In this document: piece after piece, positions 8,553-59,668 of the stretch
Position numbering within the stretch: the first letter of the stretch is position 1
How the letters are laid out: each line of letters opens with the position of its first letter
Assembly (NCBI GenBank): GCA_963707025.1
Contig: CAVPOM010000004.1
Span: 96,001-160,000 of the forward strand
DNA from: an uncultured Verrucomicrobiae bacterium
GTDB lineage: Bacteria; Verrucomicrobiota; Verrucomicrobiia; Limisphaerales; Palsa-1400
Reading direction: 5' to 3'
Length of the DNA: 64,000 nucleotides
Translations under genes and position numbers: made by a program
Notes under the pieces: model-generated
What the model was told of the DNA's origin: nothing
The model's input: only the letters and a program-made list of their open reading frames with translations
The model's database searches: none

Positions 8553-9215
8553 ATGAAAAAATTGTTAACGATCGCCATTGGAATCGTGTTTGCCTTCACG
8601 AGCGTCAACTCCGTCTATTCCCAACAATTGTGGAACCTGGCGAAAGATAACAAAGCCACCTTCGCACTCTCGGTCTGGTTCACCGCACGGAATGTGCGCG
8701 ATTCTCTATCCACGCCGGCCGGGTTGGATAGTGCGGTTACCTGGTGCAAACGTTATGGAGTTACCAAAGTATATCTTGAAGCCTTCGGGAGGGGTCTTTA
8801 TGCGGAGCGCAAGACTCTGGCAGATGCGAAGGCCAGGCTGCTGAAAGAGGGATTCGAAGTGCAGGGCGGTGTCACGACCAGTCAGTTCGGAAAAGACGGT
8901 GTCGGCAATGGGTGGAAGGGCGCCCAATGCTATACCGACAAAGGAACACAGGAAGAACTCCAGCGCATCTTCGAATTCGCCGCCTCCCTGTTCGATGAAA
9001 TCATTATTGACGATTGGTATTTCACGACGTGCCAGTGCGAGGCCTGTGCCGCCGCCCGCGGAAACCAGACCTGGCCGGAGTACTAATCGGGTACAATGCC
9101 TGCTTTAACATGCGCTGGCTGGCAAGTCTGGGCAACGCCGGCGGCGGCTGGTTCGATAGTGGCGGCACGAGAACGACGGTGAATACATACCTGGAGCAGG
9201 CCCGGCATTCTGTGT
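8553..9215 (+). pseudogene. Secreted TIM-barrel/glycoside hydrolase-like protein with internal deletion
   Basis: Signal peptide and FDEIIIDDWYFTTCQC; stop at 9086; an out-of-frame fragment (GGGWFD...TYLEQARHSVL) follows. Confidence 0.55.
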
Positions 9216-9411
9216 TGTCATGCCTGACAAGGATGCGGTGGTGGCCATCACTGCCGACACCGCCGACATGCAAGGCGAATTGAACGCGATTTGGAACAAC
9301 CTGTTTCCCGCATTTCAATCCGGGGCGCTGCCAGAGGATGCGGCCGGACAGGCAAAGCTGAAGCAAGTGATCGCCAATCTGCAAGCCCATCCGGCGAAGA
9401 AGGATAAATAA
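9215..9411 (+). pseudogene. C-terminal fragment of a serine hydrolase (beta-lactamase family-like)
   Basis: VMPDKDAVVAITADTADMQGELNAIWNNLFPA resembles C-termini of that family; no N-terminus. Confidence 0.5.
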
Positions 9412-47342: not shown

Positions 47343-48792
47343 CACAGCCATCCCACAGGAAATTGGAAAAAAGTGTTGGCTTGACCATTTGAACCTGCCA
47401 CAAGGCAGGCATGAAAAACAAAAAAATCAAACCGACACGGTCCCGGTTTAACGTTTTGCGCCAGATTTGCAATCTCATTCCTGCGCATGAAGTCTCCAAA
47501 ATAGCGCGGGAGACCGGGCTCTGGATAAGTCGCGCACCTTCAGTCCGTGGAGTCACACGGTCAGTTTGCTGGACGCGCAACTCACCCATTGCATCGGACT
47601 CAACGATCTGTGCGACTCGCTGCAATTGCATTCCGGGCCGCTGTCCACTTTGCGCGGCGCCAGCGCCCCCAGCCGCAACGGCCTCTCCCACGCCAACCGG
47701 GAGCGTCCGGCCCAGATGGCCGAACAACTCTTCTGGCGGGTCCTGGAGCATTTGAAAGCACAGACGCCCGGCTTTGCCGCGGGCCAGCGCCGTGGCCCCG
47801 CCTTCCGTTTCAAGATGCCCATCCATGTGATTGATAGCACGACCATGGAACTGGTGGCCAACTGCCTGGACTGGGCCAAGCACCGCCGGCGCAAGGCCGC
47901 CGCCAAAACCCATATGCGGTTGAATCTGCAGAATCTTTTGCCCGGTTTTGTCATTGTGGACACTGCCGCCGAGCACGACAACCGACGGGCGCGGGAACTG
48001 TGCGCCGACTTGAAGAGCGGCGAAATCGCCTTGTTCGACAAGGGTTATGTGGACTTCGGCCACTTGCGGGATTTGGACGGGCGCGGGGTCTTTTGGGTGA
48101 CGCGGGCCAAGGAGAACATGGGCTATGAGGTGGTGCGGAAAATGCCCGCCTCCAGAGACCCGAAGATTTTGCGCGACGAAGTGATCGTCCTGAGCAACGA
48201 GAACAAACCCGCGCCGGAGTTGATGCGCCGGGTGGTGGCGCTGGTCGAGATTGATGGAGAGGAACGGGAAATGACCTTCCTGACCAACAACCTGGAGTGG
48301 AGTCCGCGCAGCGTGGCCGACCTTTACCGCTGCCGCTGGCAGATCGAAGTCTTCTTCAAACAAATCAAGCAGACCTTGCAGTTGGCGGATTTTCTGGGCC
48401 ACAACGCCAACGCCGTGCGCTGGCAGGTGTGGACGGCGCTGTTGACCTACGTGCTGTTGCGCTACCTCAGTCACCTCTCCAACTGGGCGCACAGCTTCAC
48501 CCGGCTGTTCACGATTTTGCGGGCGGCGCTCTGGGAGAAATATGATCTGCTCAATTTGCTGGCGTGCTATGGGACAGCAGGCGGCAGCTTTCGCCACTTG
48601 GCGCGGCCCGAGCAGGCGTATTTCCCCGGCTTCCAATAAAGCTATGGGACAGCACACGCGCCCAAACAGGCGCATACCAAACCCAAAAGCCAAACTCGGA
48701 AAAATCAAAATCTCATTTTACCCCGAAGACCAATTAAACCCTTGCAAATGAACAGGTCAGCACCAGACTTTTCCCCTTATGAGACGGGTGTG
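47343..48792 (+). mobile_element. IS4-family element (1450 bp); transposase 47411-48639 frameshifted near 47520
   Basis: IRs cacagccatcccaca / cacacccgtctcata; 9-bp target duplication AAACAATTG (47334-42, 48793-801); IDSTT, FDKGY, YRCRWQIEVFFK. Confidence 0.93.
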
Positions 48793-49021
48793 AAACAATT
48801 GCATAAGAACTGGCGGTTGATGCCGGCAACCGTCCAGGAGCCCCTATAAAAGGCCGCCCTCTCCGCCTTGGTGGCGAACGCCTTCGGATCAAACAAACGC
48901 CTGCAAGGCCCGTTTACGCTCAAAACTTGGTGTAATTTCAAACCTTGGCGCCGGGAACAACCAGTCCTCACCGCAGTTCTGTAAAACATTATTCACAGAA
49001 CTTTATACACATGAAAAATCC

Positions 49022-49633: not shown

Positions 49634-49870
49634 ATGCAAATGGCGCGAACCACTAGTGAGACCATTCACGGCAATCCCGGAGAGCGACGTATCCTGCCCG
49701 CCAACACCCTGGTCGTAATTGTCCCAGCCATCAATCTCCCGCCGGACAGCCCGATCAAGTATTGGGCCTATCCTGTCGAGGGTCACCCCTGGCCAGCCGA
49801 GACCGAGGCATGGGCGGAGGACGTTGGTGCTGGCCTGGGTGCCGATGATGTGGCCTTGGTCAATAAATGA
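49634..49870 (+). CDS. Small hypothetical protein
   Basis: RBS aaggag upstream; in the operon run. Confidence 0.55.
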   Translation: MQMARTTSETIHGNPGERRILPANTLVVIVPAINLPPDSPIKYWAYPVEGHPWPAETEAWAEDVGAGLGADDVALVNK

Positions 49871-50205
49871 AAGGCAAAAACACTTCAACCACCAACATGA
49901 GCAAGATCATCAGCAAAGTCTGGACCTTTCCATCCGACAGCAATCCCAACGTCAGTTACGAAACCTTGCGGTATGCGGATGGCACAACCTCCTGCAACTG
50001 CGAGGGCTGGACCCGTCGTGTGGCCGCCGATGGCAGCCGCTCGTGCAAACATACACGTTTCGTGGATATGGGCACGGCGGATCAAAGCTGCACGGCCACA
50101 CACAATTACGAAAGTCACCAACCACAACAAAAGGAGCAAATACATCATGCCAAAAATCACATCTGCCAAATCCCCAAACTCGGACATCGCAAAATCTCCG
50201 TCTGA
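49867..50205 (+). CDS. SWIM-like zinc-finger protein
   Basis: SCNCEGW...SCKH (CxC...CxH). Confidence 0.7.
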   Translation: MKGKNTSTTNMSKIISKVWTFPSDSNPNVSYETLRYADGTTSCNCEGWTRRVAADGSRSCKHTRFVDMGTADQSCTATHNYESHQPQQKEQIHHAKNHICQIPKLGHRKISV

Positions 50206-51706
50206 GATGAAGGGAAGAATCATAAACCACATCCGGGCCGGCTACCCGGGGCTTTATCTGGTTTCCCATGAGGAACAGAGGGTCAACCTCGAAATGAAAT
50301 CCATCGCCCGGGAACTCAAATACAACCTGGTTCTCTGGAGCGCGGTGGACGGCCTGGTGGACACCGCAAAGAACACCGCCACCGCCGCCAACGATCCCCT
50401 GGAAGCAGTATTGGCCATCCGGGATATGAAGGAGAAGACGATCATCCTGTTGCGGGATTTTCATTTGTTCCTCCAGGATCCCAACCCCATCCTGATCCGG
50501 CAATTAAAGGACGTGTTGCAGGAGGCCAAGACCAAATTCAAGACCCTGATTATTCTGGGTTGCCGGTTGTGCTTGCCTCCTGAGCTTGAGCGCGAACTGA
50601 CCGTCATCGAAATTGCCCTGCCCGGAAAAGAGGAACTGCGGGTTGTCCTCACCGGCATCATGGAATCGGCCGGCATCAAATCCATGGAGCAGGAAACCAG
50701 GGAGAAGGCGATTGATGCTGCTTCCGGGTTGACCACCATTGAAGCGGAAAATGCATTTGCCCTGTCCGTGGTGGAATCGAAGGGAATAAACCCGGAGATT
50801 GTGGCCAGGGAGAAAGCCCAGGCGGTGAAGAAGAACGGACTCCTGGAACTGGTCGAAGCCAAGGATTCGCTGGAATCCATTGGCGGGCTGGACGTGTTGA
50901 AGGAGTGGTTATTAAAGAGGAGAAATGCCTTCAGCCAAAAAGCCATTGAATACGGCCTGCCAACACCCAAGGGCGTGCTCATTATCGGAATTCCGGGGAC
51001 CGGCAAATCGTTGACGGCCAAAGCCACCGCTAAAGTCTTCGGCGTTCCCCTGCTGAAATTGGACGCCGGCAGGATCTTCGCCGGTCTGGTCGGTCAAAGC
51101 GAATCCAACCTCCGCTCCGTCATCCAAACCGCAGAGGCCATCGCGCCCTGCTGCCTCTGGATTGAGGAATTGGAGAAGGGTTTTGCCGGGAGCAAAAGTT
51201 CAGGATCAACCGATGGCGGCACCTCGGCCCGGGTGTTCGGCAGTTTCATCAGTTGGATGCAGGAAAAGAAAAGTCCTGTCTTCGTGGTGGCTACAGCCAA
51301 TGACGTGTCCCAATTGCCGCCGGAAATGCCGAGGAAGGGGAGGTTCGATGAATTGATGTTCGTGGATCGGCCCAATCAGAATGAACGGGATGCGATCTGC
51401 GGCATTCAGATCCGGAAATATGCACGCAATCCTTCGGACTTTGACCTGGTGCAATTGGCCAGAGTGACGGAGGGGCTGACGGGCAGTGAGATTGAAAGTG
51501 TGTTTGCAGATTCGTTGTACCTGGCTTTTGACAGTGACCGGGAGCCTGGAGATTTGGACGTGGCACATATTCTCACGGAGTTTGTGCCGCTGTCCAAACT
51601 GATGGCGGAGCAAATCACCGGGTTGAGGAACTGGGCGAAGGGGAGGGCGCGGTTGGCCACGTCAACGCAGGAGGTGGGAGGGGGTCCCAGGAGAATTGCC
51701 GCCTGA
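50147..51706 (+). CDS. Ycf46-like AAA+ ATPase
   Basis: HEEQR N-domain, LLRDFH, IGGLDVLKEWL, Walker A GIPGTGKS, RKGRFDE; Walker B reads WIEE. Confidence 0.9.
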   Translation: MPKITSAKSPNSDIAKSPSEMKGRIINHIRAGYPGLYLVSHEEQRVNLEMKSIARELKYNLVLWSAVDGLVDTAKNTATAANDPLEAVLAIRDMKEKTIILLRDFHLFLQDPNPILIRQLKDVLQEAKTKFKTLIILGCRLCLPPELERELTVIEIALPGKEELRVVLTGIMESAGIKSMEQETREKAIDAASGLTTIEAENAFALSVVESKGINPEIVAREKAQAVKKNGLLELVEAKDSLESIGGLDVLKEWLLKRRNAFSQKAIEYGLPTPKGVLIIGIPGTGKSLTAKATAKVFGVPLLKLDAGRIFAGLVGQSESNLRSVIQTAEAIAPCCLWIEELEKGFAGSKSSGSTDGGTSARVFGSFISWMQEKKSPVFVVATANDVSQLPPEMPRKGRFDELMFVDRPNQNERDAICGIQIRKYARNPSDFDLVQLARVTEGLTGSEIESVFADSLYLAFDSDREPGDLDVAHILTEFVPLSKLMAEQITGLRNWAKGRARLATSTQEVGGGPRRIAA

Positions 51707-51719
51707 TGAGGCGGGAAAG

Positions 51720-51749
51720 GAGTCCGCCTTCGGGCGGGCTCTTTTCTTT
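51720..51749 (+). terminator. Rho-independent terminator
   Basis: gagtccgcc-ttcg-ggcgggctc followed by ttttcttt. Confidence 0.85.
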
Positions 51750-51841
51750 AGGTGCGAGGCGAGGGTTACATTGGCGCGGGTTCTACCAATGCTGCCCATA
51801 ATCTTCTTGATAGTCGCAGGCGGCAGTATTATCCTATCCCC

Positions 51842-52201
51842 ATGAGATACGGGATCTTGCTAACGCTGTTGATGCTTGCCGGCTGCGTCCATATCCATCA
51901 ATCCAGCGGCATGGCCCGCAAGGAGCAGATTCAGGCGCATCTCAAGGACCAACTCCACTGCCAATGGCTCGAACTCCACGAGGACGGCGACCAACGCTTT
52001 GCAGGATTCGGAAAAAATGGCTCCGGAGAATTCACGATTGAGGTGACCCGCCAAGGAGACACGCTGACTTTTCGCGGCGTTTATCGTCCCCCAAGCAACG
52101 GTTCATTTAGCGGCACCGCCTCATGGAGCCGGCAAGTGGATTCGACCTTCGGTTTTCACAGGGCCAGCGATTCATTCCAGAATTCCCTGGGCGGTCCGTA
52201 A
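51842..52201 (+). CDS. Hypothetical lipoprotein
   Basis: LAGC lipobox. Confidence 0.65.
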   Translation: MRYGILLTLLMLAGCVHIHQSSGMARKEQIQAHLKDQLHCQWLELHEDGDQRFAGFGKNGSGEFTIEVTRQGDTLTFRGVYRPPSNGSFSGTASWSRQVDSTFGFHRASDSFQNSLGGP

Positions 52202-52403
52202 GCCATTTCTACACATACGAAACCCTGGCCATGAAACAATGGGGAGCCAGGCGGGCTCTTTTTTAGATGTCCGGTGATTTTCATTCCTGCAACTCGTCCA
52301 GAGCCACCAGTCGCCGGCGCACGCTGGTATTGCCACAACGTCCGTATGCGGCTGGGCTTCCACGTGTAGTTTCCAGCCCTCGGTTACGAAATCATAGCAG
52401 GAT

Positions 52404-53722
52404 CACAAGCCTCCGGTCATTAGTCCCACAACATCAACTGGTTATGACTATTGCTAGGATTATTTTGAGATTGGGTTTGTGTAACCAGTTGTGCCAGAGG
52501 GATTTGCTCAAAAACGTTCACGCTCAAAATCTGTAGGATTTGGGACAAGCTCAACTCCAGCCTAAGTTCCTTGCGAACGATAGCCACCAGCACGTAAACG
52601 CAGATGGCGATCCAGACTTGCGTCTTGACCGCGTTGTCCGTCGTGCCGAAAAAGTGTTTGATCCGCAGGTTTTGCTTGATCCACTTGAAGAACAATTCCA
52701 CCTGCCAGCGGCATTTGTAGAGTTGGGCGATAATAAGGGCGGGCAAGTCAAAGTTATTAGTCAAGAATACCAATATCTTCCCGTCCTTCGGATCTCTATA
52801 ACTGACCCGGCGCAAGCGGTCCGGGTAATGCGCCACGCTTTGGGGCAGACTCAGCCACACGATGTGGTCGCTGCGCACGCCCGTGCTTTTGTCCACCGGA
52901 CGGGACTCCAACCGGTTGAGTTGTACGCCGGCTTTGGTGCGGGTGACAAAGAACGCCCCCGCCAGTTCAAAGCCATAGAGCCGTCGAAAATCCACGTAGG
53001 CGCGATCCATCACATAGAAGGCCCCCGGCTCGGGAATCAATTCGTCCAGCACGCGCACGTCGGCCTGTGTTCCCTCGGTAATCGAGATCATCGTCGGAAT
53101 CGGGCCGCGCAAATCCAGCAGCGTGTGGAGCTTGATCGCGGCCTTGGTAGAGCGAAATCGCGCCTAGGGGAACAAGCTCAGGCAAAGATCAATCGTGGTG
53201 GAATCCAAGGCGTAAACGGTTTGCTCCAACTCGACGGCGAGCGGTTCGTTGGCGTAAAGACGGCGGGCGCGCGCGATGAGCCGTTGCGCCAGGTCGGCGT
53301 AGATGCGCCAGTCGCGCGCGCCGTCGGCGTCGGCCAGGGTGCTATGCGCCACGGTCGAACGGAAACCCATCCGATAGAGTTGGTCTGGCCGCGAGCGCAG
53401 GCAGACTTCGATGTCCGCCAAGCTTTCCCGATAAGTGATCTGAGCGAAGGCCATAGCCAGGAACTGATCCCAACATGGGAAGCTACAAACCTTGTAGTTT
53501 CCATCGTAGCGATTGACACAGCGACGAAATTGTTCGGGATGTATCCACTCGGTCAGTTGCGAAAAAATCAATTTTCCAGTGAGCATGGTGCCAGTTTGGC
53601 ATCATGGCTGCTGCGGAGAATGACAAAACAAAGTTCAAATCGCTCACATCATTTTTCATGCGCATGTGGTTCCCATTGCGCATTTTACAACTGGCGACGT
53701 TCTCCGTGACCGGATGACAGTG
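52404..53722 (-). mobile_element. IS4-family element (DUF4372-type transposase 53586-52420) inactivated by a TAG at 53164-53166
   Basis: IRs cacaagcctccggtca / cactgtcatccggtca; LFP*ARFR; MDRAY, YKCRWQVELFFKW; no clear target duplication. Confidence 0.9.
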
Positions 53723-53900
53723 ATGTCCCAACGATGTTGGCTCATTGTCACAGCAAGCGCAACAGTTTCTTCCGCAAGGACAGGTCGCGCCCGCCACGGC
53801 CTTTCAGTTCAAATAACCCAAATTGACTCCTTAGAGCCACCACCAGGCAAAAAAATCTGAATGGTTTTGGCTGTCGTACTCACTTCGGGCCCAACTACCG

Positions 53901-54221
53901 TTACAACGTCCTCTTCCCTTCCGCCCTGGCCCTCGCCCATCTCGCCCGGACCGCCGCTGCAAGTTTGGCCCTGGTTGCTGGACTGCTGCGCCGATCCTTC
54001 TTTTTGGAAACCTTCACCCTAGCCCAACGTGCCCTGGCCCCGGCCGCAATCGCCGCCCTTCCCGCCGCACTCAATCGCCTCTTGCTTTTCTTGGCCGCTT
54101 TTGCCATTGCCGAGCGTATCTTCCGCGCCCGCGCCAGAGCCTTAATGAGTTTACGCTTGTGGGCGGCGGTCATGTGATAATTGCGTTTGGCTGGAGTTGG
54201 CACCTCGGCTGGACTGGACAC
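53901..54221 (-). CDS. Basic Lys/Arg/Ala-rich histone-like protein (likely N-truncated)
   Basis: Repeats LSAAGRAAIAAGARARWA and SSPATRAKLAAAVRARWA. Confidence 0.6.
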   Translation of the reverse strand: MSSPAEVPTPAKRNYHMTAAHKRKLIKALARARKIRSAMAKAAKKSKRRLSAAGRAAIAAGARARWARVKVSKKKDRRSSPATRAKLAAAVRARWARARAEGKRTL

Positions 54222-54235
54222 GGCGACTTCTCCAG

Positions 54236-54687
54236 TATTTGGCCGCGCAATAGAGCGAAATCATCGGCAGACCGACAAGCCCTGCGCGAGAGCTGACGTT
54301 GATAATCAAGCCGCTCTTGTTCCGCCGGAAATGCGGCAACAGCGCCCGCGTGACATCCATCACGCCGAAGACGTTGACATTGAATTGTTCCTGAACCTTT
54401 TCGCGCGAAATCCCCTCGAAGATGCCGAAAAGGCTAAAGCCAGCGTTGTTGATCAAAGCGTCAATCCGGCCGAACCGCCCCATCCCGTCCGCGACGGCCG
54501 CGTCAATGCTCTCTCGATCCTGCACATCCAGTCGTGTGACCAATATGCCAGGCAGGCGGGCCAATTCCGAATCCGCCGCCGGCTGGCGCATGGTGGCAAT
54601 GACGTTCCAGTCGTTACCTGCAAAGACCCTGGCCGCCGCCAGGCCAATACCGGAGGACGCTCCCGTGATCAGAACTGTTTTCTTCAT
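54236..54687 (-). pseudogene. SDR oxidoreductase, C-terminally truncated
   Basis: ITGASSGIG, NNAG; SDR similarity ends at YCAAK. Confidence 0.85.
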
Positions 54688-54760
54688 GCACCCCCATCGT
54701 CTCAAGCTTTCACGCAAAAAGCGAATCGCAGGCGCTGGAGCACGGACCACCAATTTCAAC

Positions 54761-54836
54761 GCTCCCGTAGCTCAATCACCAGAGCGCGACGCTTCGAACG
54801 TCGAAGATGAGGGTGAGAGTCCTTCCGGGAGTGCCA
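54761..54836 (+). tRNA. tRNA-Arg(UCG)
   Basis: Acceptor gctcccg/cgggagt-g-cca; anticodon arm cgacg-cttcgaa-cgtcg; T-loop TGAGAGT. Confidence 0.85.
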
Positions 54837-54842
54837 ATTCAG

Positions 54843-54919
54843 GCCGCGTTAGCCCAACTACCAGAGGCGCCCCGCTTAGGACGGGGAGGTTGGGGGTGGA
54901 AATCCCTCACGCGGCACCA
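54843..54919 (+). tRNA. tRNA-Leu(UAG), short variable region
   Basis: gccgcgt/acgcggc-a-cca; ccccg-cttagga-cgggg; T-loop TGGAAAT. Confidence 0.85.
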
Positions 54920-54923
54920 CTTT

Positions 54924-54997
54924 GCTCCCGTAGCCCAAAGCAGAGGCGACGGGCTTAAACCCCGTGCAGTGTCAGTGCAAATCTGACCGGGAGCACC
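54924..54997 (+). tRNA. tRNA-Leu(UAA), short variable region
   Basis: gctcccg/cgggagc-a-cc; acggg-cttaaac-cccgt; gtcag-tgcaaat-ctgac. CCA incomplete and abuts the next gene. Confidence 0.85.
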
Positions 54998-55073
54998 CGC
55001 GTGTAGCCCAATTAGCAGAGGCGTCCTGCTCAAACCGGGGAGGTTGCAGGTGCAAGTCCTGTCACGCGGACCA
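54997..55073 (+). tRNA. tRNA-Leu(CAA), short variable region
   Basis: ccgcgtg/cacgcgg-a-cca; tcctg-ctcaaac-cgggg; gcagg-tgcaagt-cctgt. Confidence 0.85.
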
Positions 55074-55077
55074 ATTT

Positions 55078-55165
55078 GGAATGTCAACCGGACACGCGAG
55101 CCGGGCCTGTTTGCTAAACAGTGCGTGCCCTCGGGCAAGTGGCGCAAGTCCACGGCATTCCGCCA
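55078..55165 (+). tRNA. tRNA-Ser(GCU) with 8/4 acceptor/T-stem fold
   Basis: ggaatgtc/ggcattcc-g-cca; loop ttgctaa; V-arm tgccc-tc-gggca; gtgg-cgcaagt-ccac. Confidence 0.8.
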
Positions 55166-55173
55166 TTTTCTGC

Positions 55174-55265
55174 GCGCGCGTAGTTCAAAGTCGAACGGTC
55201 CGTCTTATAAACGGAGTCGCACTAGATGAGTGCCCAGGTCCGGAGCTTACCGGACGCGCGCACCA
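55174..55265 (+). tRNA. tRNA-Ile(UAU)-anticodon tRNA with long variable arm
   Basis: gcgcgcg/cgcgcgc-a-cca; tccgt-cttataa-acgga; V-arm gcact-agatg-agtgc; 6-nt T-loop. Confidence 0.75.
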
Positions 55266-55318
55266 TTTCCAATCACCGTGGTGTTCTCCAGCAATACGTC
55301 AGAATCGTCAAAAGCCCC

Positions 55319-56419
55319 TTAATGCTGATCACCAGTGTTCGTCGAACCTGAATCTTGGACGGGCGCAGGAAGTTTTTGAAGGAAGCTCTCAAGATCAGGA
55401 ACAAGCGTGTTCGCACTCTGTTCGTCGAGAAGAACTCGTAAGGTATAACCTCTCGCAGCTTCATCAAGGTAACGTCGCATCTCAGTGTTCGGCTGGTTGA
55501 ACAATTTCAAAGCCCGGCGTAGGACTGGCGCAGCGTTGGCATCCTTAGCGATTAACAAAGCATGTGCGTAATAGAAAATGCCCCAGTAATCCGTGTGGTT
55601 CCATCCACCAGCTCCGAAGTCGTCCAACCACTTTCCCAGACGGTCGCGGACGTCAGGAACGACCGACATATCTCCAACCTGCACCAGACACAGAGCGTCA
55701 TCCGGTTCATGAGATCGTTCATACTCTTTGCGTATTGTGGCTTTCGCCTCGCTGTTATTGATATGGATCAAGTAGTTCAATGCACCCTGCCGGAGGTACC
55801 AATCGCCGCCGCCATCGGCCTCAATATAGTGTTCAGCATCCGGCATCGCCCTTTGATCACCAATTTTGCCGAGTGCTACGAAGACCTCCTCCTTCACGCG
55901 CCATGCAGACCCTTCCCAGGAATACTGGTGTCGGAGGATTCTCAGCAAAACGTCAGCGCTGTCCTTTGCACGAAGGGTCCCAAGAGTTTCAATCTGCGAA
56001 TCGTATTCGATTAAGGTCAGGTCGGTCCACACGGACTCCAAGTCCTTTTGCAATACTGGGGCAGCACGCAAATCTCCCAGTTTCTGCAACGCGCGACAGA
56101 TGGCCTCCTTTGTATTGTGGTTATTCCCGCACGCTGTGTATGCTCGACAAAGGTTTGCCACCCGGTCGCGCTGCTTTTGGGCGAGTACGCCATTTAATGC
56201 GTCAGGTGTGTTGAAAAACCACAGCGTTGGTAGAATTTGAACAAGTTCGTCGTATCCACCGTCTCCAGCCTCAACCAAGGCGGTCACCTTTTCCTTCTCC
56301 CTGGCGATGCGTTGGTGCCGGCGGTGGTTGCTCAACGACTCCAGAGCATCGGGCAGAACTAGAAGCGTCAGCAACGCGACCAAGATGCTCCAAACCCAAA
56401 ATCAACGTGTCAGTTTCAT
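55319..56419 (-). pseudogene. HEAT/PBS-lyase repeat membrane-anchored protein with in-frame TGA at codon 6
   Basis: MKLTR*FWVWSILVALL; ALGKIGDQRAMP and ALQKLGDLRAAP repeats. Could restart at TTG 56383. Confidence 0.65.
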
Positions 56420-56565
56420 GGTGGTCTGTGATAAGAGCGTAACTATTCCAAAGCTGAAATGCACGCGTCATCGCGGAGCCTCGGTCCAAGAAGCCGTTTC
56501 AAATCACTGAACGCGAAACAGCTCCAGCGGCCTCGCGAAGTGCATTTAGCCGGTGAAAGAGCATC

Positions 56566-56637
56566 CGCAGTCGAACCAGCGTTCAGGCAGGCGTCATAAG
56601 CCAGTCGAGCCCAGGGCAGCACTGGGGACTGCGACCA
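56566..56637 (+). tRNA. tRNA with CAU anticodon (Met or Ile2), degenerate D-arm
   Basis: cgcagtc/gactgcg-a-cca; loop gtcataa; cccag-ggcagca-ctggg. Confidence 0.65.
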
Positions 56638-56642
56638 TTTTC

Positions 56643-56714
56643 GCCTCCATGCAGCAACCTGCGGATTTCTTTTGTAAGGAAATCTAGCCGGAGCATCCCC
56701 GGCTGGAGGCTCCA
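56643..56714 (+). tRNA. tRNA-Thr(UGU), reduced D-arm
   Basis: gcctcca/tggaggc-t-cca; tttct-tttgtaa-ggaaa; gccgg-agcatcc-ccggc. Confidence 0.7.
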
Positions 56715-56722
56715 CAGATTTT

Positions 56723-56799
56723 GCTCGCGTAGTCCAACAGCAGAGACACGACGTCGAGAACGTCGCCAGTGTCCCGACTCGTCGGGACCGCGAGCACCA
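56723..56799 (+). tRNA. tRNA-Leu(GAG), short variable region, aberrant T-loop
   Basis: gctcgcg/cgcgagc-a-cca; cgacg-tcgagaa-cgtcg (C33); gtccc-gactcgtc-gggac. Confidence 0.7.
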
Positions 56800-56805
56800 G
56801 TTCTT

Positions 56806-56879
56806 GGTCTGCAAGCATTAAAGTGATGCAACTGCCTTTTGAGCCGTTGAACCGGGAGCGTTACCCGGGCGGGCCACCA
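56806..56879 (+). tRNA. tRNA-Lys(UUU)
   Basis: ggtctgc/gcgggcc-a-cca; gcat-taaagtg-atgc; loop cttttga; ccggg-agcgtta-cccgg; one anticodon-stem mismatch. Confidence 0.75.
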
Positions 56880-57654
56880 TTTGGGCCGTGCCAAGATGCA
56901 CCGCCTCCAGCCGGGGACGTTTTGGGTGAAATTGCCCTTCGACGGGGCTGCCCGGCCAAAGGCGGTCCAGCAAGTGGTGCCGGCACCACGACCAGGATTC
57001 GGCCATGCGAGCCCAACGGCTCCGTGCGTTCCGCTCCGGCATGGGCTGCTGCCAGGCATCATCCGTCCCCGGCAAGCCGAGGGCCTGGGCCAGCGCCGCC
57101 GCGATCCGGGCGTGGCCTTCGGCGTTCACATGGAAACGGTCCTCGCTCCAGAGTCGCGGGTCGGAGCCAACCGGGTATGCGGCGAAGTCAATGAGGCGGG
57201 CGCCGGTGGAAGCTGCGGCCTCGCGGATGGTGTCATTCATGGCCCGGACCCGGGGAGCCAGGAGACGGCCGATCGGCATGACGCCGGTGAGGTCCGGGAG
57301 CGTGAAAGTCAACACGACTGCTTTCCCGCCGACGAGCGCCCCCAGCATGCACTCGAGTTCTGCCCGCAGCTTGGCAGCATCGAAACTGCGTTCGAGGATG
57401 TCATTCGAGCCCGCGAAAACCGTCGCGAGGTCGGGCTTCATTGCACGCGCTGGTCCAAGCTGCTCCTCGCGGATTTCCCGGGAGCGCTTGCCGCGCACAC
57501 CCAGGTTAGCGTAGAGCAACCCGCCCTGCGCTTGCGCCACGCGCTCTGCCAGACGGTTCGCCCAGCCACGGTAACCGCCCGCCCCATCCGGGTCTTGGAG
57601 CCCCTCGGTGGAACTGTCGCCGATCGCGACGTAGCGATCGAATCGGAGCGTCAT
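56818..57654 (-). CDS. SGNH/GDSL hydrolase
   Basis: VAIGDSSTEG, NLGVRG, GSND, DRFH; 3' end overlaps tRNA-Lys antisense. Confidence 0.9.
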   Translation of the reverse strand: MTLRFDRYVAIGDSSTEGLQDPDGAGGYRGWANRLAERVAQAQGGLLYANLGVRGKRSREIREEQLGPARAMKPDLATVFAGSNDILERSFDAAKLRAELECMLGALVGGKAVVLTFTLPDLTGVMPIGRLLAPRVRAMNDTIREAAASTGARLIDFAAYPVGSDPRLWSEDRFHVNAEGHARIAAALAQALGLPGTDDAWQQPMPERNARSRWARMAESWSWCRHHLLDRLWPGSPVEGQFHPKRPRLEAVHLGTAQMVARPGNAPGSTAQKAVASL

Positions 57655-57759
57655 GACGATATTGTGCGGGATGGCAACGGGGCACGTCTATGTGAACTTG
57701 AAGAAGATGCATTTTCAAACCGGCGGATTTACCCCGTTTTCGGACCGCCACTGACATTT

Positions 57760-57834
57760 TGCCGGGTCGTCTAATTCGTAGGACACTGCCCTTTGAAGGC
57801 GCTTATGTTGGTGCAAATCCAGCCCCGGCAGCCA
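57760..57834 (+). tRNA. tRNA-Gln(UUG)
   Basis: tgccggg/cccggca-g-cca; loop ctttgaa; gttgg-tgcaaat-ccagc. Confidence 0.8.
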
Positions 57835-57839
57835 ATTTT

Positions 57840-57913
57840 CGCCCGGTGGTGAAATAGGATCACGTCCGGCCTACACCCGGAAATCGAGGGGGCAGAACCT
57901 TCCCGGGCGACCA
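57840..57913 (+). tRNA. tRNA-Val(UAC)
   Basis: cgcccgg/ccgggcg-a-cca; tccgg-cctacac-ccgga (C33); gaggg-ggcagaa-ccttc. Confidence 0.78.
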
Positions 57914-57914
57914 T

Positions 57915-57989
57915 TGCCTCGTTGCATAATCAGGAGTGCGCCGGTCTCTGACACCGGAAGACCTGGAGCAAAACCAGGCGAGGCAGCCA
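57915..57989 (+). tRNA. tRNA-Gln(CUG)
   Basis: tgcctcg/cgaggca-g-cca; ccggt-ctctgac-accgg; cctgg-agcaaaa-ccagg. Confidence 0.82.
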
Positions 57990-58046
57990 ATTTCATCGTG
58001 AACCCTAATCCCGACCGGCGGGGGTCGAATCGAAATAAATCATTTT

Positions 58047-58091
58047 TATCTTGTTTTTATGATAAACCTTATTTATCCTGTTTACATGATA
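58047..58091 (+). promoter_or_regulatory. Two HipB-type operators
   Basis: TATC-N10-GATA at 58047-64 and 58074-91, matching the geometry of the E. coli hip operator TATCC-N8-GGATA. Confidence 0.75.
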
Positions 58092-58336
58092 TGACGGACT
58101 ACCCGATCAAAACGCCGCAACAGCTTGGCTCTGTGCTCCAAGGATATCGGAGGGAGCAGAGACTGACCCAACAGGCGGTCGGAGCCAAAGTGGGGCTCGC
58201 GCAAAACGCCGTTTCGCAAATTGAGGCCGACCCGGGGAGCGCCGGATTGGCGCGAATCTTCAAGTTATTGGCCGCCCTCGATCTTGAACTTGTCGTGCGG
58301 CCGAGGAAAGCAAACGCACGCCAGTCAGACTGGTGA
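58091..58336 (+). CDS. hipB: HipB-like XRE HTH antitoxin
   Basis: TPQQLG, LTQQAVGAKVGLAQNAVSQIE, terminal W. Confidence 0.9.
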   Translation: MTDYPIKTPQQLGSVLQGYRREQRLTQQAVGAKVGLAQNAVSQIEADPGSAGLARIFKLLAALDLELVVRPRKANARQSDW

Positions 58337-58339
58337 CGT

Positions 58340-59668
58340 ATGGGCAGGCGTCGAAAGTCCCGCTCCCTCTCCGTGTGGATGAACGGGGAGAAGGTTGGTG
58401 ATTGGCGTGTGGCGGCCACCGGCCAGGAATTCCTCTACGCGGAGAGATGGCTCTCCTCTCCTGCCGCCAGACCCATTTCGCTGTCGTTGCCGTTGCGCCC
58501 TTCCCAAGAACCGTATCGCGATGGCGTGGAAGCATTCTTCGATAATCTGCTGCCTGATAATCGTCAAATCCGCGAGCGAATCCAGCGCCGATTCAATACC
58601 CGGTCGGTTGGGGCGTTCGACCTGTTGCAAGAAATAGGGCGGGATTGTGTTGGCGCGTTGCAATTGATGCCGGAAGACGAGCCACCGCCCGGCATACAGC
58701 AAATCACTGGCGAGCGCCTGACACCAACCGGAGTCGAGCAACTTCTATCCGGGACCTTGGCCCCGACGTTCCATGAAGCAGAGGCGGATGAGGACGCCTT
58801 CCGGATTTCGTTGGCGGGAGCGCAAGAAAAGACGGCGCTGTTGTGGCACAAAGGCGCCTGGCTGCGGCCGACGCATGCGACCCCCACAACGCATATTCTC
58901 AAGCTCCCCATGGGGATCAACACCCAGGGAATTGATCTTTCAACGTCGGTGGAAAACGAATGGCTATGCGCGCAAATAGCAGAGGCGTATGGCATCGAGG
59001 TGGCGAAATGCCGGATCGAAACGTTTGGCCAGTACAAGACACTCGTCGTGGAGCGGTTTGATCGGAGGCTGGCCCCTGATCGGACGTGGCATCTGCGATT
59101 ACCGCAGGAGGACCTTTGCCAGGCGACCACCACGCCCCCGGCACTGAAATACGAGAGCGATGGCGGCCCAGGCATTGCTGTCGTCATGGACCTGTTGCTG
59201 GGTTCGGAGCGAGCGGTTGAGGATCGCCGGGATTTTATGCGCACCCAATTGGTATTCTGGATGCTGGCGGCGATCGACGGCCACGCCAAAAACTTCAGCC
59301 TGTTTATTCTGCCGGGCGGTGCGTATCGGCTGACGCCGCGATATGACATTATGTCCGCCTATCCAATTCTGGGGCACGGCCGCGGCAAGTTGGCGCCGGA
59401 CAAGATCCGAATGGCCATGGCCGTAACGGGGAAGAGTCGTCATTATCGGTGGAAAGAAATTCACGCTCGGCACTGGATCGATACGGCGAGGCGCCAGGGA
59501 CTTGGAGATATGGAGCAAATTATGTCGGATGTGATCGCACGGACACCGGCGGCGATTGACCTGGTGCGCAACATGGTGCCGAGGGGATTTCCTGCTCAGA
59601 TTGCCGAGGCAATACTCGGCGGAATTGAAACGCGCGCAGAACAGCTCAATGCGGAGTTGTCGGACTAA
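58340..59668 (+). CDS. hipA: HipA Ser/Thr kinase toxin
   Basis: ISLAGAQEK, VERFDR, QEDLCQA, DGHAKNFS, LTPRYD. Confidence 0.95.
   Translation: MGRRRKSRSLSVWMNGEKVGDWRVAATGQEFLYAERWLSSPAARPISLSLPLRPSQEPYRDGVEAFFDNLLPDNRQIRERIQRRFNTRSVGAFDLLQEIGRDCVGALQLMPEDEPPPGIQQITGERLTPTGVEQLLSGTLAPTFHEAEADEDAFRISLAGAQEKTALLWHKGAWLRPTHATPTTHILKLPMGINTQGIDLSTSVENEWLCAQIAEAYGIEVAKCRIETFGQYKTLVVERFDRRLAPDRTWHLRLPQEDLCQATTTPPALKYESDGGPGIAVVMDLLLGSERAVEDRRDFMRTQLVFWMLAAIDGHAKNFSLFILPGGAYRLTPRYDIMSAYPILGHGRGKLAPDKIRMAMAVTGKSRHYRWKEIHARHWIDTARRQGLGDMEQIMSDVIARTPAAIDLVRNMVPRGFPAQIAEAILGGIETRAEQLNAELSD

Follow-up and report, generated by a model that had tools for sequence, protein, structure and literature searches.

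Coupled A18/G55 substitutions in the elbow of tRNAs from a truncated gene array of an uncultured Verrucomicrobiae bacterium

We analysed a window of 64,000 nucleotides (contig CAVPOM010000004.1, positions 96,001 to 160,000, assembly GCA_963707025.1) from an uncultured Verrucomicrobiae bacterium, the host, which contains 13 same-strand (+) transfer RNA (tRNA) genes at 54761-57989 in three blocks of 6+4+3, separated by antisense cargo open reading frames (ORFs) of 1.3 and 0.9 kb that encode a HEAT-repeat and a GDSL protein (Table 1). A preliminary description had this array start at 54813, 52 bases too late. The canonical tRNA elbow comprises G18-Psi55 (Psi, pseudouridine), G19-C56, U54-A58 and a purine at position 57 (R57) (PMC4810234, PMC7912444, PMC10424219). 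None of the 13 genes combines G18 with U55: twelve have G55, none has TTC in the T-loop and none has a G18G19 D-loop, the GG in the D-loops of Val(UAC) and Gln(CUG) being G19G20 following A18. In this the preliminary description was right, and all 12 T-loops that it quoted are exact, in place and in order, the thirteenth gene, Leu(GAG), being without a normal T-arm. R57 is found in 11 of the 12 G55 genes, giving the sequence of a GNR T-loop (G at position 2, purine at position 4), and U54-A58 in 5 of the 12 T-loops. ARAGORN detects 5 of the 13 genes, 7 score above the gathering score of Rfam RF00005 (41.7-54.7 bits) and a loop-blind cloverleaf finder recovers 10, while Ser(GCU), Met(CAU) and Thr(UGU) were identified by eye; the cloverleaf of acceptor, D, anticodon and T stems is present in the 10 by the finder and in the remainder by homology and folding.

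Table 1 Genes of the array and features at its borders, in window coordinates
Feature	Position	Strand	Remarks
SDR gene, antisense cargo	54151..54687	-	3'-truncated; likeness to the C8 sibling array ends at 54236
tRNA-Arg(UCG)	54761..54836	+	A18 C19, G55 A56; 19:56 mismatch common to close homologues
tRNA-Leu(UAG)	54843..54919	+	short variable arm; A18 C19, G55 G56 (19:56 swapped)
tRNA-Leu(UAA)	54924..54998	+	short variable arm; A18 G19, G55 C56; without encoded CCA
tRNA-Leu(CAA)	54997..55073	+	short variable arm; A18 G19, G55 C56
tRNA-Ser(GCU)	55078..55165	+	C54 G55 C56; C at 18 (private; A in most homologues)
UAU-anticodon tRNA (Ile by anticodon)	55174..55265	+	long variable arm; A18 G19; T-loop one base short (private deletion)
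HEAT-repeat protein ORF, 354 aa, antisense cargo	55319..56383	-	splits array
tRNA-Met(CAU)-like gene	56565..56637	+	G54 G55 C56, G58
tRNA-Thr(UGU)	56643..56714	+	short D-loop; A54 G55 C56; D-loop G to A (private)
tRNA-Leu(GAG)	56723..56799	+	short arm; A18 G19 kept; T-arm replaced by REP-like palindrome
tRNA-Lys(UUU)	56806..56879	+	A18 G19, A54 G55 C56, U58; G37 (A37 in 9 of 9 homologues shown)
GDSL/SGNH hydrolase ORF, 278 aa, antisense cargo	56818..57654	-	also in some homologous arrays
tRNA-Gln(UUG)	57760..57834	+	C18 G19, G55 C56; private anticodon-stem mismatch
tRNA-Val(UAC)	57840..57913	+	A18 G19, G54 G55 C56, G58
tRNA-Gln(CUG)	57915..57989	+	final array gene; A18 G19, A54 G55 C56
hipB-hipA toxin-antitoxin pair	58090..59668	+	occupies HNH gene position of intact arrays; hipB start approximate

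The rest of the host genome provides an internal control. Two further arrays, on contigs C2 and C8 (the siblings), are all G55, and the motif TTCRA occurs in none of the 26 ARAGORN calls in the three arrays versus 46 of 51 outside them. The five exceptions outside are tRNA-Glu(CUC), which is A18/G55, and four calls that appear false as judged by reading; 46 of the 47 credible non-array tRNAs of the host thus have TTC. Y-RNA-like genes inside the arrays also retain TTC, so a local mutation bias is not at work. Twelve of the 13 window anticodons are served by canonical genes elsewhere in the genome as well, UAU alone being extra; that the array might be the sole source of Ser(GCU) was ruled out by a canonical gene at the end of contig C12. 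The UAU-anticodon tRNA with its long variable arm is kept across these arrays, its amino acid being assigned by anticodon only, and the window Leu(UAG) gene is the orthologue of the arrays' Leu(CAG) with one wobble base altered.

We collected array tRNAs more widely with the cloverleaf finder, which scores stems rather than elbow bases and requires a pyrimidine at position 33 (Y33), a purine at position 37 (R37), and tolerates no more than one mismatch in any stem. Loci came from relatives' arrays, from an elbow-blind Leu D-stem pattern and from a choice for G55. A locus was retained if it held at least four tRNAs that scored 56 or higher and had 7-base T-loops; duplicates were discarded, as were the redundant loci L004-L023. 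Position 18 was never a selection criterion and was classed by a GG/AG rule for the D-loop. Among 1,683 unique tRNAs from 166 loci, whose totals are not prevalences because some loci were chosen for G55, 751 are GG/U55 and 777 AG/G55, whereas only 11 are GG/G55 and 4 AG/U55, so that intermediates make up 15 of 1,543 classed genes; a further 16 are GG/C55 and 124 have neither D-loop motif. In the 42 loci where both types occur, 420 of 439 genes show concordance, whereas permuting position 55 inside each locus yields 260 +/- 9 (at most 297), and of 116 loci with at least six tRNAs, again partly chosen for G55, 36 are without G55 and 34 have G55 only. The A18/G55 swap therefore recurs in hundreds of related genes. 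Two named Verrucomicrobia records (loci L057 and L079) carry all-G55 arrays, and the A18/G55 swap is found in whole phage-like arrays. A BLAST search against cultured phages and plasmids gave short tRNA matches only. A nearest-neighbour test placed 139 of 852 G55 tRNAs nearer to a U55 gene of the same anticodon, which is suggestive only of a repeated origin of G55. A two-T-arm pattern matched 3 of 301 genomes of the phylum, a figure that is not a prevalence because the pattern misses the host's own arrays.

As to the other elbow positions, C56 is found in 819 of 881 G55 tRNAs, and 771 of these 819 have AG in the D-loop; of the 20 with G56, 16 have AC and none AG, and of the 37 with A56, 16 have AT and 10 AC. 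By these counts, 19:56 covaries in G55 tRNAs, imperfectly for A56. The compensatory 19:56 swap that the preliminary description saw among the window Leu genes is real (C19/G56 in Leu(UAG), G19/C56 in Leu(UAA) and Leu(CAA)), and its suggestion of an A18-G55 elbow with 19:56 compensation is borne out by covariation; neither of the two outcomes that it had named as refuting, normal TTC loops in homologues or a lack of 19:56 covariation, was observed. It had set Arg apart as a misfit; window Arg(UCG) is indeed mismatched (C19/A56), but, as read by eye, 12 of the 17 listed Arg(UCG) genes that lack C56 can pair 19:56. R57 is present in 634 of 635 G55 tRNAs. In contrast, U54-A58 is found in 433 of these 635 versus 643 of 669 U55 tRNAs (55% of G55 versus 97% in a second array tally), the other 54:58 combinations being A-U (61), G-G (56), C-A (42), A-A (26) and C-C (11); by this comparison, 54:58 is freed in G55 tRNAs and yet itself covaries. 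Uridines at D-loop positions 16/17 and 20 are also scarcer with G55 (36% and 24% versus 64% and 43%).

Several observations suggest that the family consists of working tRNAs. Of 397 stem pair types that differ from the consensus in relatives' arrays, 362 remain paired, 271 of them through a double change, and 95% of array tRNAs encode CCA. For 141 of 291 array genes, where 19 would be expected, the closest canonical tRNA has the gene's own amino-acid specificity; since isotype identity is retained, each isotype must have switched separately. The last gene of the Anabaena trn operon, Ile(GAU) (NC_003273.1, ~49836-49907), is A18/G55 with G54/G58, and Glu(CUC) of the same operon is also A18/G55. 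The Ile(GAU) tRNA is described as aminoacylated in vivo, with an aberrant gel mobility (PMC8421152).

The swap also reaches an everyday single-copy gene, the stand-alone tRNA-Glu(CUC) of the host (contig C7, 240632-240706). A pattern for this tRNA matched in 51 of 61 genomes, with TGC in 34 and TTC in 17, and among 30 loci (L552-L581) 18 are A18/G55, 12 G18/U55 and none mixed, although these loci are kin rather than independent and possibly reflect few events. The copies at L552 and L555 differ solely at positions 18 and 55, so the purpose of Psi55 is directly testable with this pair.

Being truncated, the window copy tells less than any other member of the family. Its genes follow the order seen in the 3' half of an array that relatives conserve. 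This array was matched in 22 of 61 genomes (which are incomplete), several with two or three divergent copies, and its intact homologues hold 20-24 genes by a strict finder, likewise with cargo gaps. The preliminary description had overlooked that the window copy is the leaderless, decaying 3' half of this larger array. Position 54236, where likeness to the C8 sibling ends within the SDR gene, marks the 5' break of this copy; the array leader was not found in the window, nor an orphan 5' half in the 88%-complete genome. The HNH gene that accompanies both siblings, and 13 of the 20 loci retrieved from relatives, is absent. Compared by eye with up to nine homologues per gene, 6 of the 13 genes have private lesions, namely in the Leu(GAG) T-arm, the UAU T-loop, Ser position 18, the Thr D-loop, Lys position 37 and the Gln(UUG) anticodon stem, and Leu(GAG) is likely a pseudogene. 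A promoter scan of 51500-58500 returned 5 sites versus 2.7 +/- 1.6 in shuffles, none of them immediately 5' of the array. In three metatranscriptomes 5-6% of the sequence words were present, on contigs that come from relatives and are deeper over the insertion sequence than over the tRNA genes, which speaks neither for nor against expression. The window copy, its leader lost, is likely silent and decaying. G55, common to all homologous arrays, is older than this decay.

Mobile and repeated DNA lies in and around the array. The REP-like palindrome that replaces the Leu(GAG) T-arm (56771-56788) belongs to a family with 53 copies in the genome, and in arrays L002 and L039 the same family replaces the D-arm of Thr(UGU), a hairpin staying in place. 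Upstream lie a 1.45 kb insertion sequence (47343-48794), which has dozens of near-identical copies in the genome and whose 470-aa ORF gave no Pfam or NCBIfam match, an IS4-like transposase in two ORFs (52420-53586) and a small dispersed repeat (53901-54200) that adjoins the array break.

Intact arrays open with a conserved leader (L002, 14740-15480 (-); L003, 16220-16900 (-); 11 further loci) that comprises a promoter-like region, an ORF, an antiterminator/terminator and then a structured stretch ending in a conserved motif, which we take to be boxA-like. The sibling leader corresponds to no Rfam family. The ORF is 56-57 codons long in 13 of 13 distinct copies, and its end covers the 5' strand of the antiterminator, 26-30 bases before the intrinsic terminator. 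Across all 11 aligned copies 10 pairs of the terminator are conserved, as are 9 of the antiterminator, and a single three-way compensatory change is common to both. All 20 amino acids are used in 12 of 13 leaders, which employ 39-47 different codons against a mean of 29.6 (maximum 41) in 3,351 coding windows, and the codon count is high relative to base shuffles in 10 of 13 (P at most 0.022). We predict that the sibling leader is a leader-peptide attenuator acting as a stalling sensor: a running ribosome would favour termination, whereas a stalled one would give read-through. The spare set would then be made in a burst exactly when modifying enzymes cannot be made, and an elbow without a TruB step would suit a set made at such a time. 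Cargo genes (Sir2-like, SDR, GDSL and HEAT-repeat) lie antisense between the tRNA genes at recurring positions in L002, L003, L028 and others. A Ro60 gene and several YrlA-like RNAs that keep TTC lie inside a sibling array (L003, 11132-14005 (-)), Ro60 being present in other relatives' arrays too, and a conserved, non-standard, Y-RNA-like tRNA-like element with a canonical TTC T-arm sits between Gly(UCC) and Lys(CUU) (L003, ~9190-9270 (-)) in these G55 arrays.

How might such an elbow be built? G18 and U55 rank among the most conserved tRNA nucleotides (PMC10424219), and Psi55 is described as the most universal tRNA modification, made by TruB on the consensus 53-GUUYRANYC-61 (PMC7912444). That consensus is matched by none of the 13 window T-arms, and as far as it defines the substrate a G55 T-loop cannot be one for TruB. 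The earlier proposal that this elbow needs no TruB holds to that extent, the stability of the unmodified fold being something that we infer; its extension to TrmA is moot in the host, where TrmA and TrmFO had no match over cut-off in the 88%-complete genome and the one TrmA-family member scores as RlmD. T-loops in general are built from a U-A handle joined to a UNR or GNR turn; outside tRNA the G-clamp (GNR) form is usual, its G contacting the intercalated base, whereas tRNA-Phe is a U-clamp case (PMC2615604). The A18/G55 combination is likely a GNR T-loop gripping A18, in which G55-N56-R57 would make the turn and A18 would slot between R57 and 58 to contact G55. The exposed G19-C56 face serves as a stacking surface for RNase P, the L1 stalk and T-boxes (PMC4810234), and with G19-C56 in place RNase P and the ribosome would meet the same outer face as in a canonical tRNA. 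Judging from covariation, A18/G55 is likely an alternative, functional means of locking tRNAs into their fold.

Taken together, we think it probable, though far from assured, that the window array is the 3' half of a spare array in which a coupled swap builds a GNR elbow without Psi55, with independence from modification as the favoured advantage and a stalling-sensitive leader as the putative switch of intact siblings. A spare set made in a burst or carried between hosts would gain from an enzyme-free elbow; the release of U54-A58 and the fewer D-loop uridines agree with independence from T-arm modification. A number of observations weigh against this account. The host genome has an intact truB. 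The stress-induced array of Anabaena is canonical in 24 of 25 ARAGORN calls, so stress induction does not need G55, and the swap in everyday Glu(CUC) shows that it needs no stress context. Y-RNA-like genes within the same arrays keep TTC. About one in ten G55 tRNAs (93 of 881) has neither AG nor GG, and A18 has lineage-specific exceptions, with a conserved C18 in Gln(UUG), including the lineage of the window gene, and in Leu(UAA), and no A18 in Pro(UGG). G55 array tRNAs depart also at U8 (76%), A14 (83%), U33 (79%) and 15:48 (54%), which fits general relaxation as well as design. Finally, the all-20 count of the leaders is not in itself significant relative to base shuffles (P 0.06-0.36), and the leaders are kin.

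An advantage of another kind would arise if the swap removed the U54-U55 target of T-loop-cutting tRNases or T-arm readers, the spare set surviving an attack on the everyday pool. One such tRNase is described as cutting between the conserved thymidine and pseudouridine (PMC9086364). Whole phage-like arrays carry the swap, positions 54 and 58 vary too among G55 tRNAs, Ro60 and Y RNAs accompany the arrays, and depletion of tRNAs would be expected to trigger the leader. To our knowledge, however, most known anticodon nucleases read elsewhere than the elbow. The G19-C56 face that elbow readers use is kept in most G55 tRNAs (C56 in 819 of 881), which weakens the evasion of elbow-reading nucleases that the preliminary description had considered, the window array has no linked nuclease gene, and in Anabaena the operon tRNAs, though mostly canonical, were those reported as cleaved (PMC8421152); we regard this explanation as unlikely, if still worth pursuing. 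Somewhat less probable again is a neutral course in which A18-G55 is an equally good elbow fixed by compensatory drift in arrays under weak selection and spread by homogenisation with no advantage. In its favour, everyday Glu(CUC) changes state from family to family (34 genomes with TGC and 17 with TTC among the 51 matched), array tRNAs show relaxation at further conserved sites and mixed arrays exist. Against it, intermediates are nearly absent (15 of 1,543), the bimodality and array-wide uniformity are a strain on it, and with isotypes keeping their identity the valley would have had to be crossed independently by about 30 genes.

Selection on the DNA is a further conceivable driver, G55 destroying the T-arm target of SegB-type homing endonucleases or integrases and A18 being the repair at the RNA level. 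SegB is reported to recognise GGTTCRANTCC in tRNA genes (PMC2330249), the window has no SegB site, and an HNH gene lies after both sibling arrays, as it does after 13 of the 20 loci retrieved from relatives. Yet in at least 14 of 21 array loci the Y-RNA-like elements still carry a perfect SegB site, and the same HNH family flanks canonical arrays, that of Anabaena included, which makes escape from SegB unlikely; as the host's everyday tRNA genes retain the site too, we give this driver very little weight. The last possibility, that the genes have decayed into pseudogenes, G55 having arisen by chance or as an artefact of mutation, draws on the leaderless window copy and the private lesions in 6 of its 13 genes. 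For the family it is refuted: G55 occurs in all homologous arrays and is coupled to A18, so random decay cannot explain the shared substitution, as the preliminary description had argued; moreover, the stems show compensatory change and TTC elements of the same arrays are untouched. It holds solely for the private lesions of the window copy, and as an explanation of G55 we consider its probability negligible.

Spare-tRNA arrays and G-clamp T-loops are each known already; their combination in whole tRNA sets did not turn up in the literature searched. No G55/A18 tRNA set was found there, including term look-ups in the accessible text of PMC8421152, PMC4758250, PMC5389517, PMC6409571, PMC7912444 and PMC10424219; 'G55' and 'A18' have no occurrence in that of PMC7912444 and PMC10424219, and the terms T-loop, D-loop and G55 are not mentioned in that of PMC8421152. 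These tRNAs escape gene finders, as the 5 of 13 found by ARAGORN in the window illustrate. Suppressor tRNAs selected from randomised D and T loops by the Steinberg group reportedly may include A18/G55 pairs, and the pair itself may thus already be known from artificial tRNAs. Whole sets and an everyday tRNA-Glu with A18/G55 would make the conservation of G18/U55 a matter of enzyme recognition or history more than of structural need, and such tRNAs could serve as modification-independent engineering scaffolds. More speculatively, and we hold this as a tentative and rather doubtful extension, they could represent a second natural tRNA architecture, with full sets in bacteria and large phages that have an A18-G55 GNR elbow, are independent of T-arm enzymes, are immune to T-loop attack and are released by a pan-codon attenuator as an emergency replacement of the everyday tRNA pool.

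Compared with the canonical elbow, these tRNAs share the cloverleaf, G53-C61, R57, mostly G19-C56 and an encoded CCA, and differ in A18/G55 for G18/U55, a varied 54:58 and no TruB consensus. They share G at position 2 and a purine at position 4 with the GNR or G-clamp T-loops of ribosomal RNA, riboswitches and the AMP (adenosine monophosphate) aptamer, and the G-G 54:58 closing pair of some array genes has a precedent in that aptamer, which is described as closing with a G-G pair (PMC2615604); those loops are described in non-tRNA RNAs, whereas here they are predicted in tRNAs from sequence alone. Amino-acid operons are controlled by leader-peptide transcription attenuators such as trpL and hisL. 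The leader of the siblings resembles these in being short, in overlapping the antiterminator with its end and in lying upstream of an intrinsic terminator, but it samples all amino acids and gates tRNA genes, and it is absent from the window copy.

The closest known system is the L-array, whose type example is the trn operon of Anabaena/Nostoc sp. PCC 7120 (Santamaria-Gomez et al. 2021, PMC8421152), a class described as silent during growth and induced by translational stress. Both are long same-strand redundant tRNA clusters, seemingly of patchy distribution among relatives; both have short-arm Leu tRNAs (window 54843-55073 and 56723-56799), a homologous HNH gene (E 6e-14; present in the siblings, absent from the window copy) and, in the siblings, RNA-repair neighbours. 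The L-array spacing limit given for Verrucomicrobia is 459 bp (PMC8421152 supplement), and the window copy, split 6+4+3, exceeds it; since it departs in two respects from an L-array definition to which the siblings largely conform, it is a remnant of an L-array-like element. The elbow sets the two apart, Anabaena having TTC and GG except in Glu(CUC) and Ile(GAU), whereas here the whole set is G55. Control differs as well: the Anabaena operon is described as controlled through direct repeats in its promoter (PMC8421152), while the siblings have a predicted leader-peptide attenuator, and this putative stalling switch would parallel the stress induction of the Anabaena operon by a different route.

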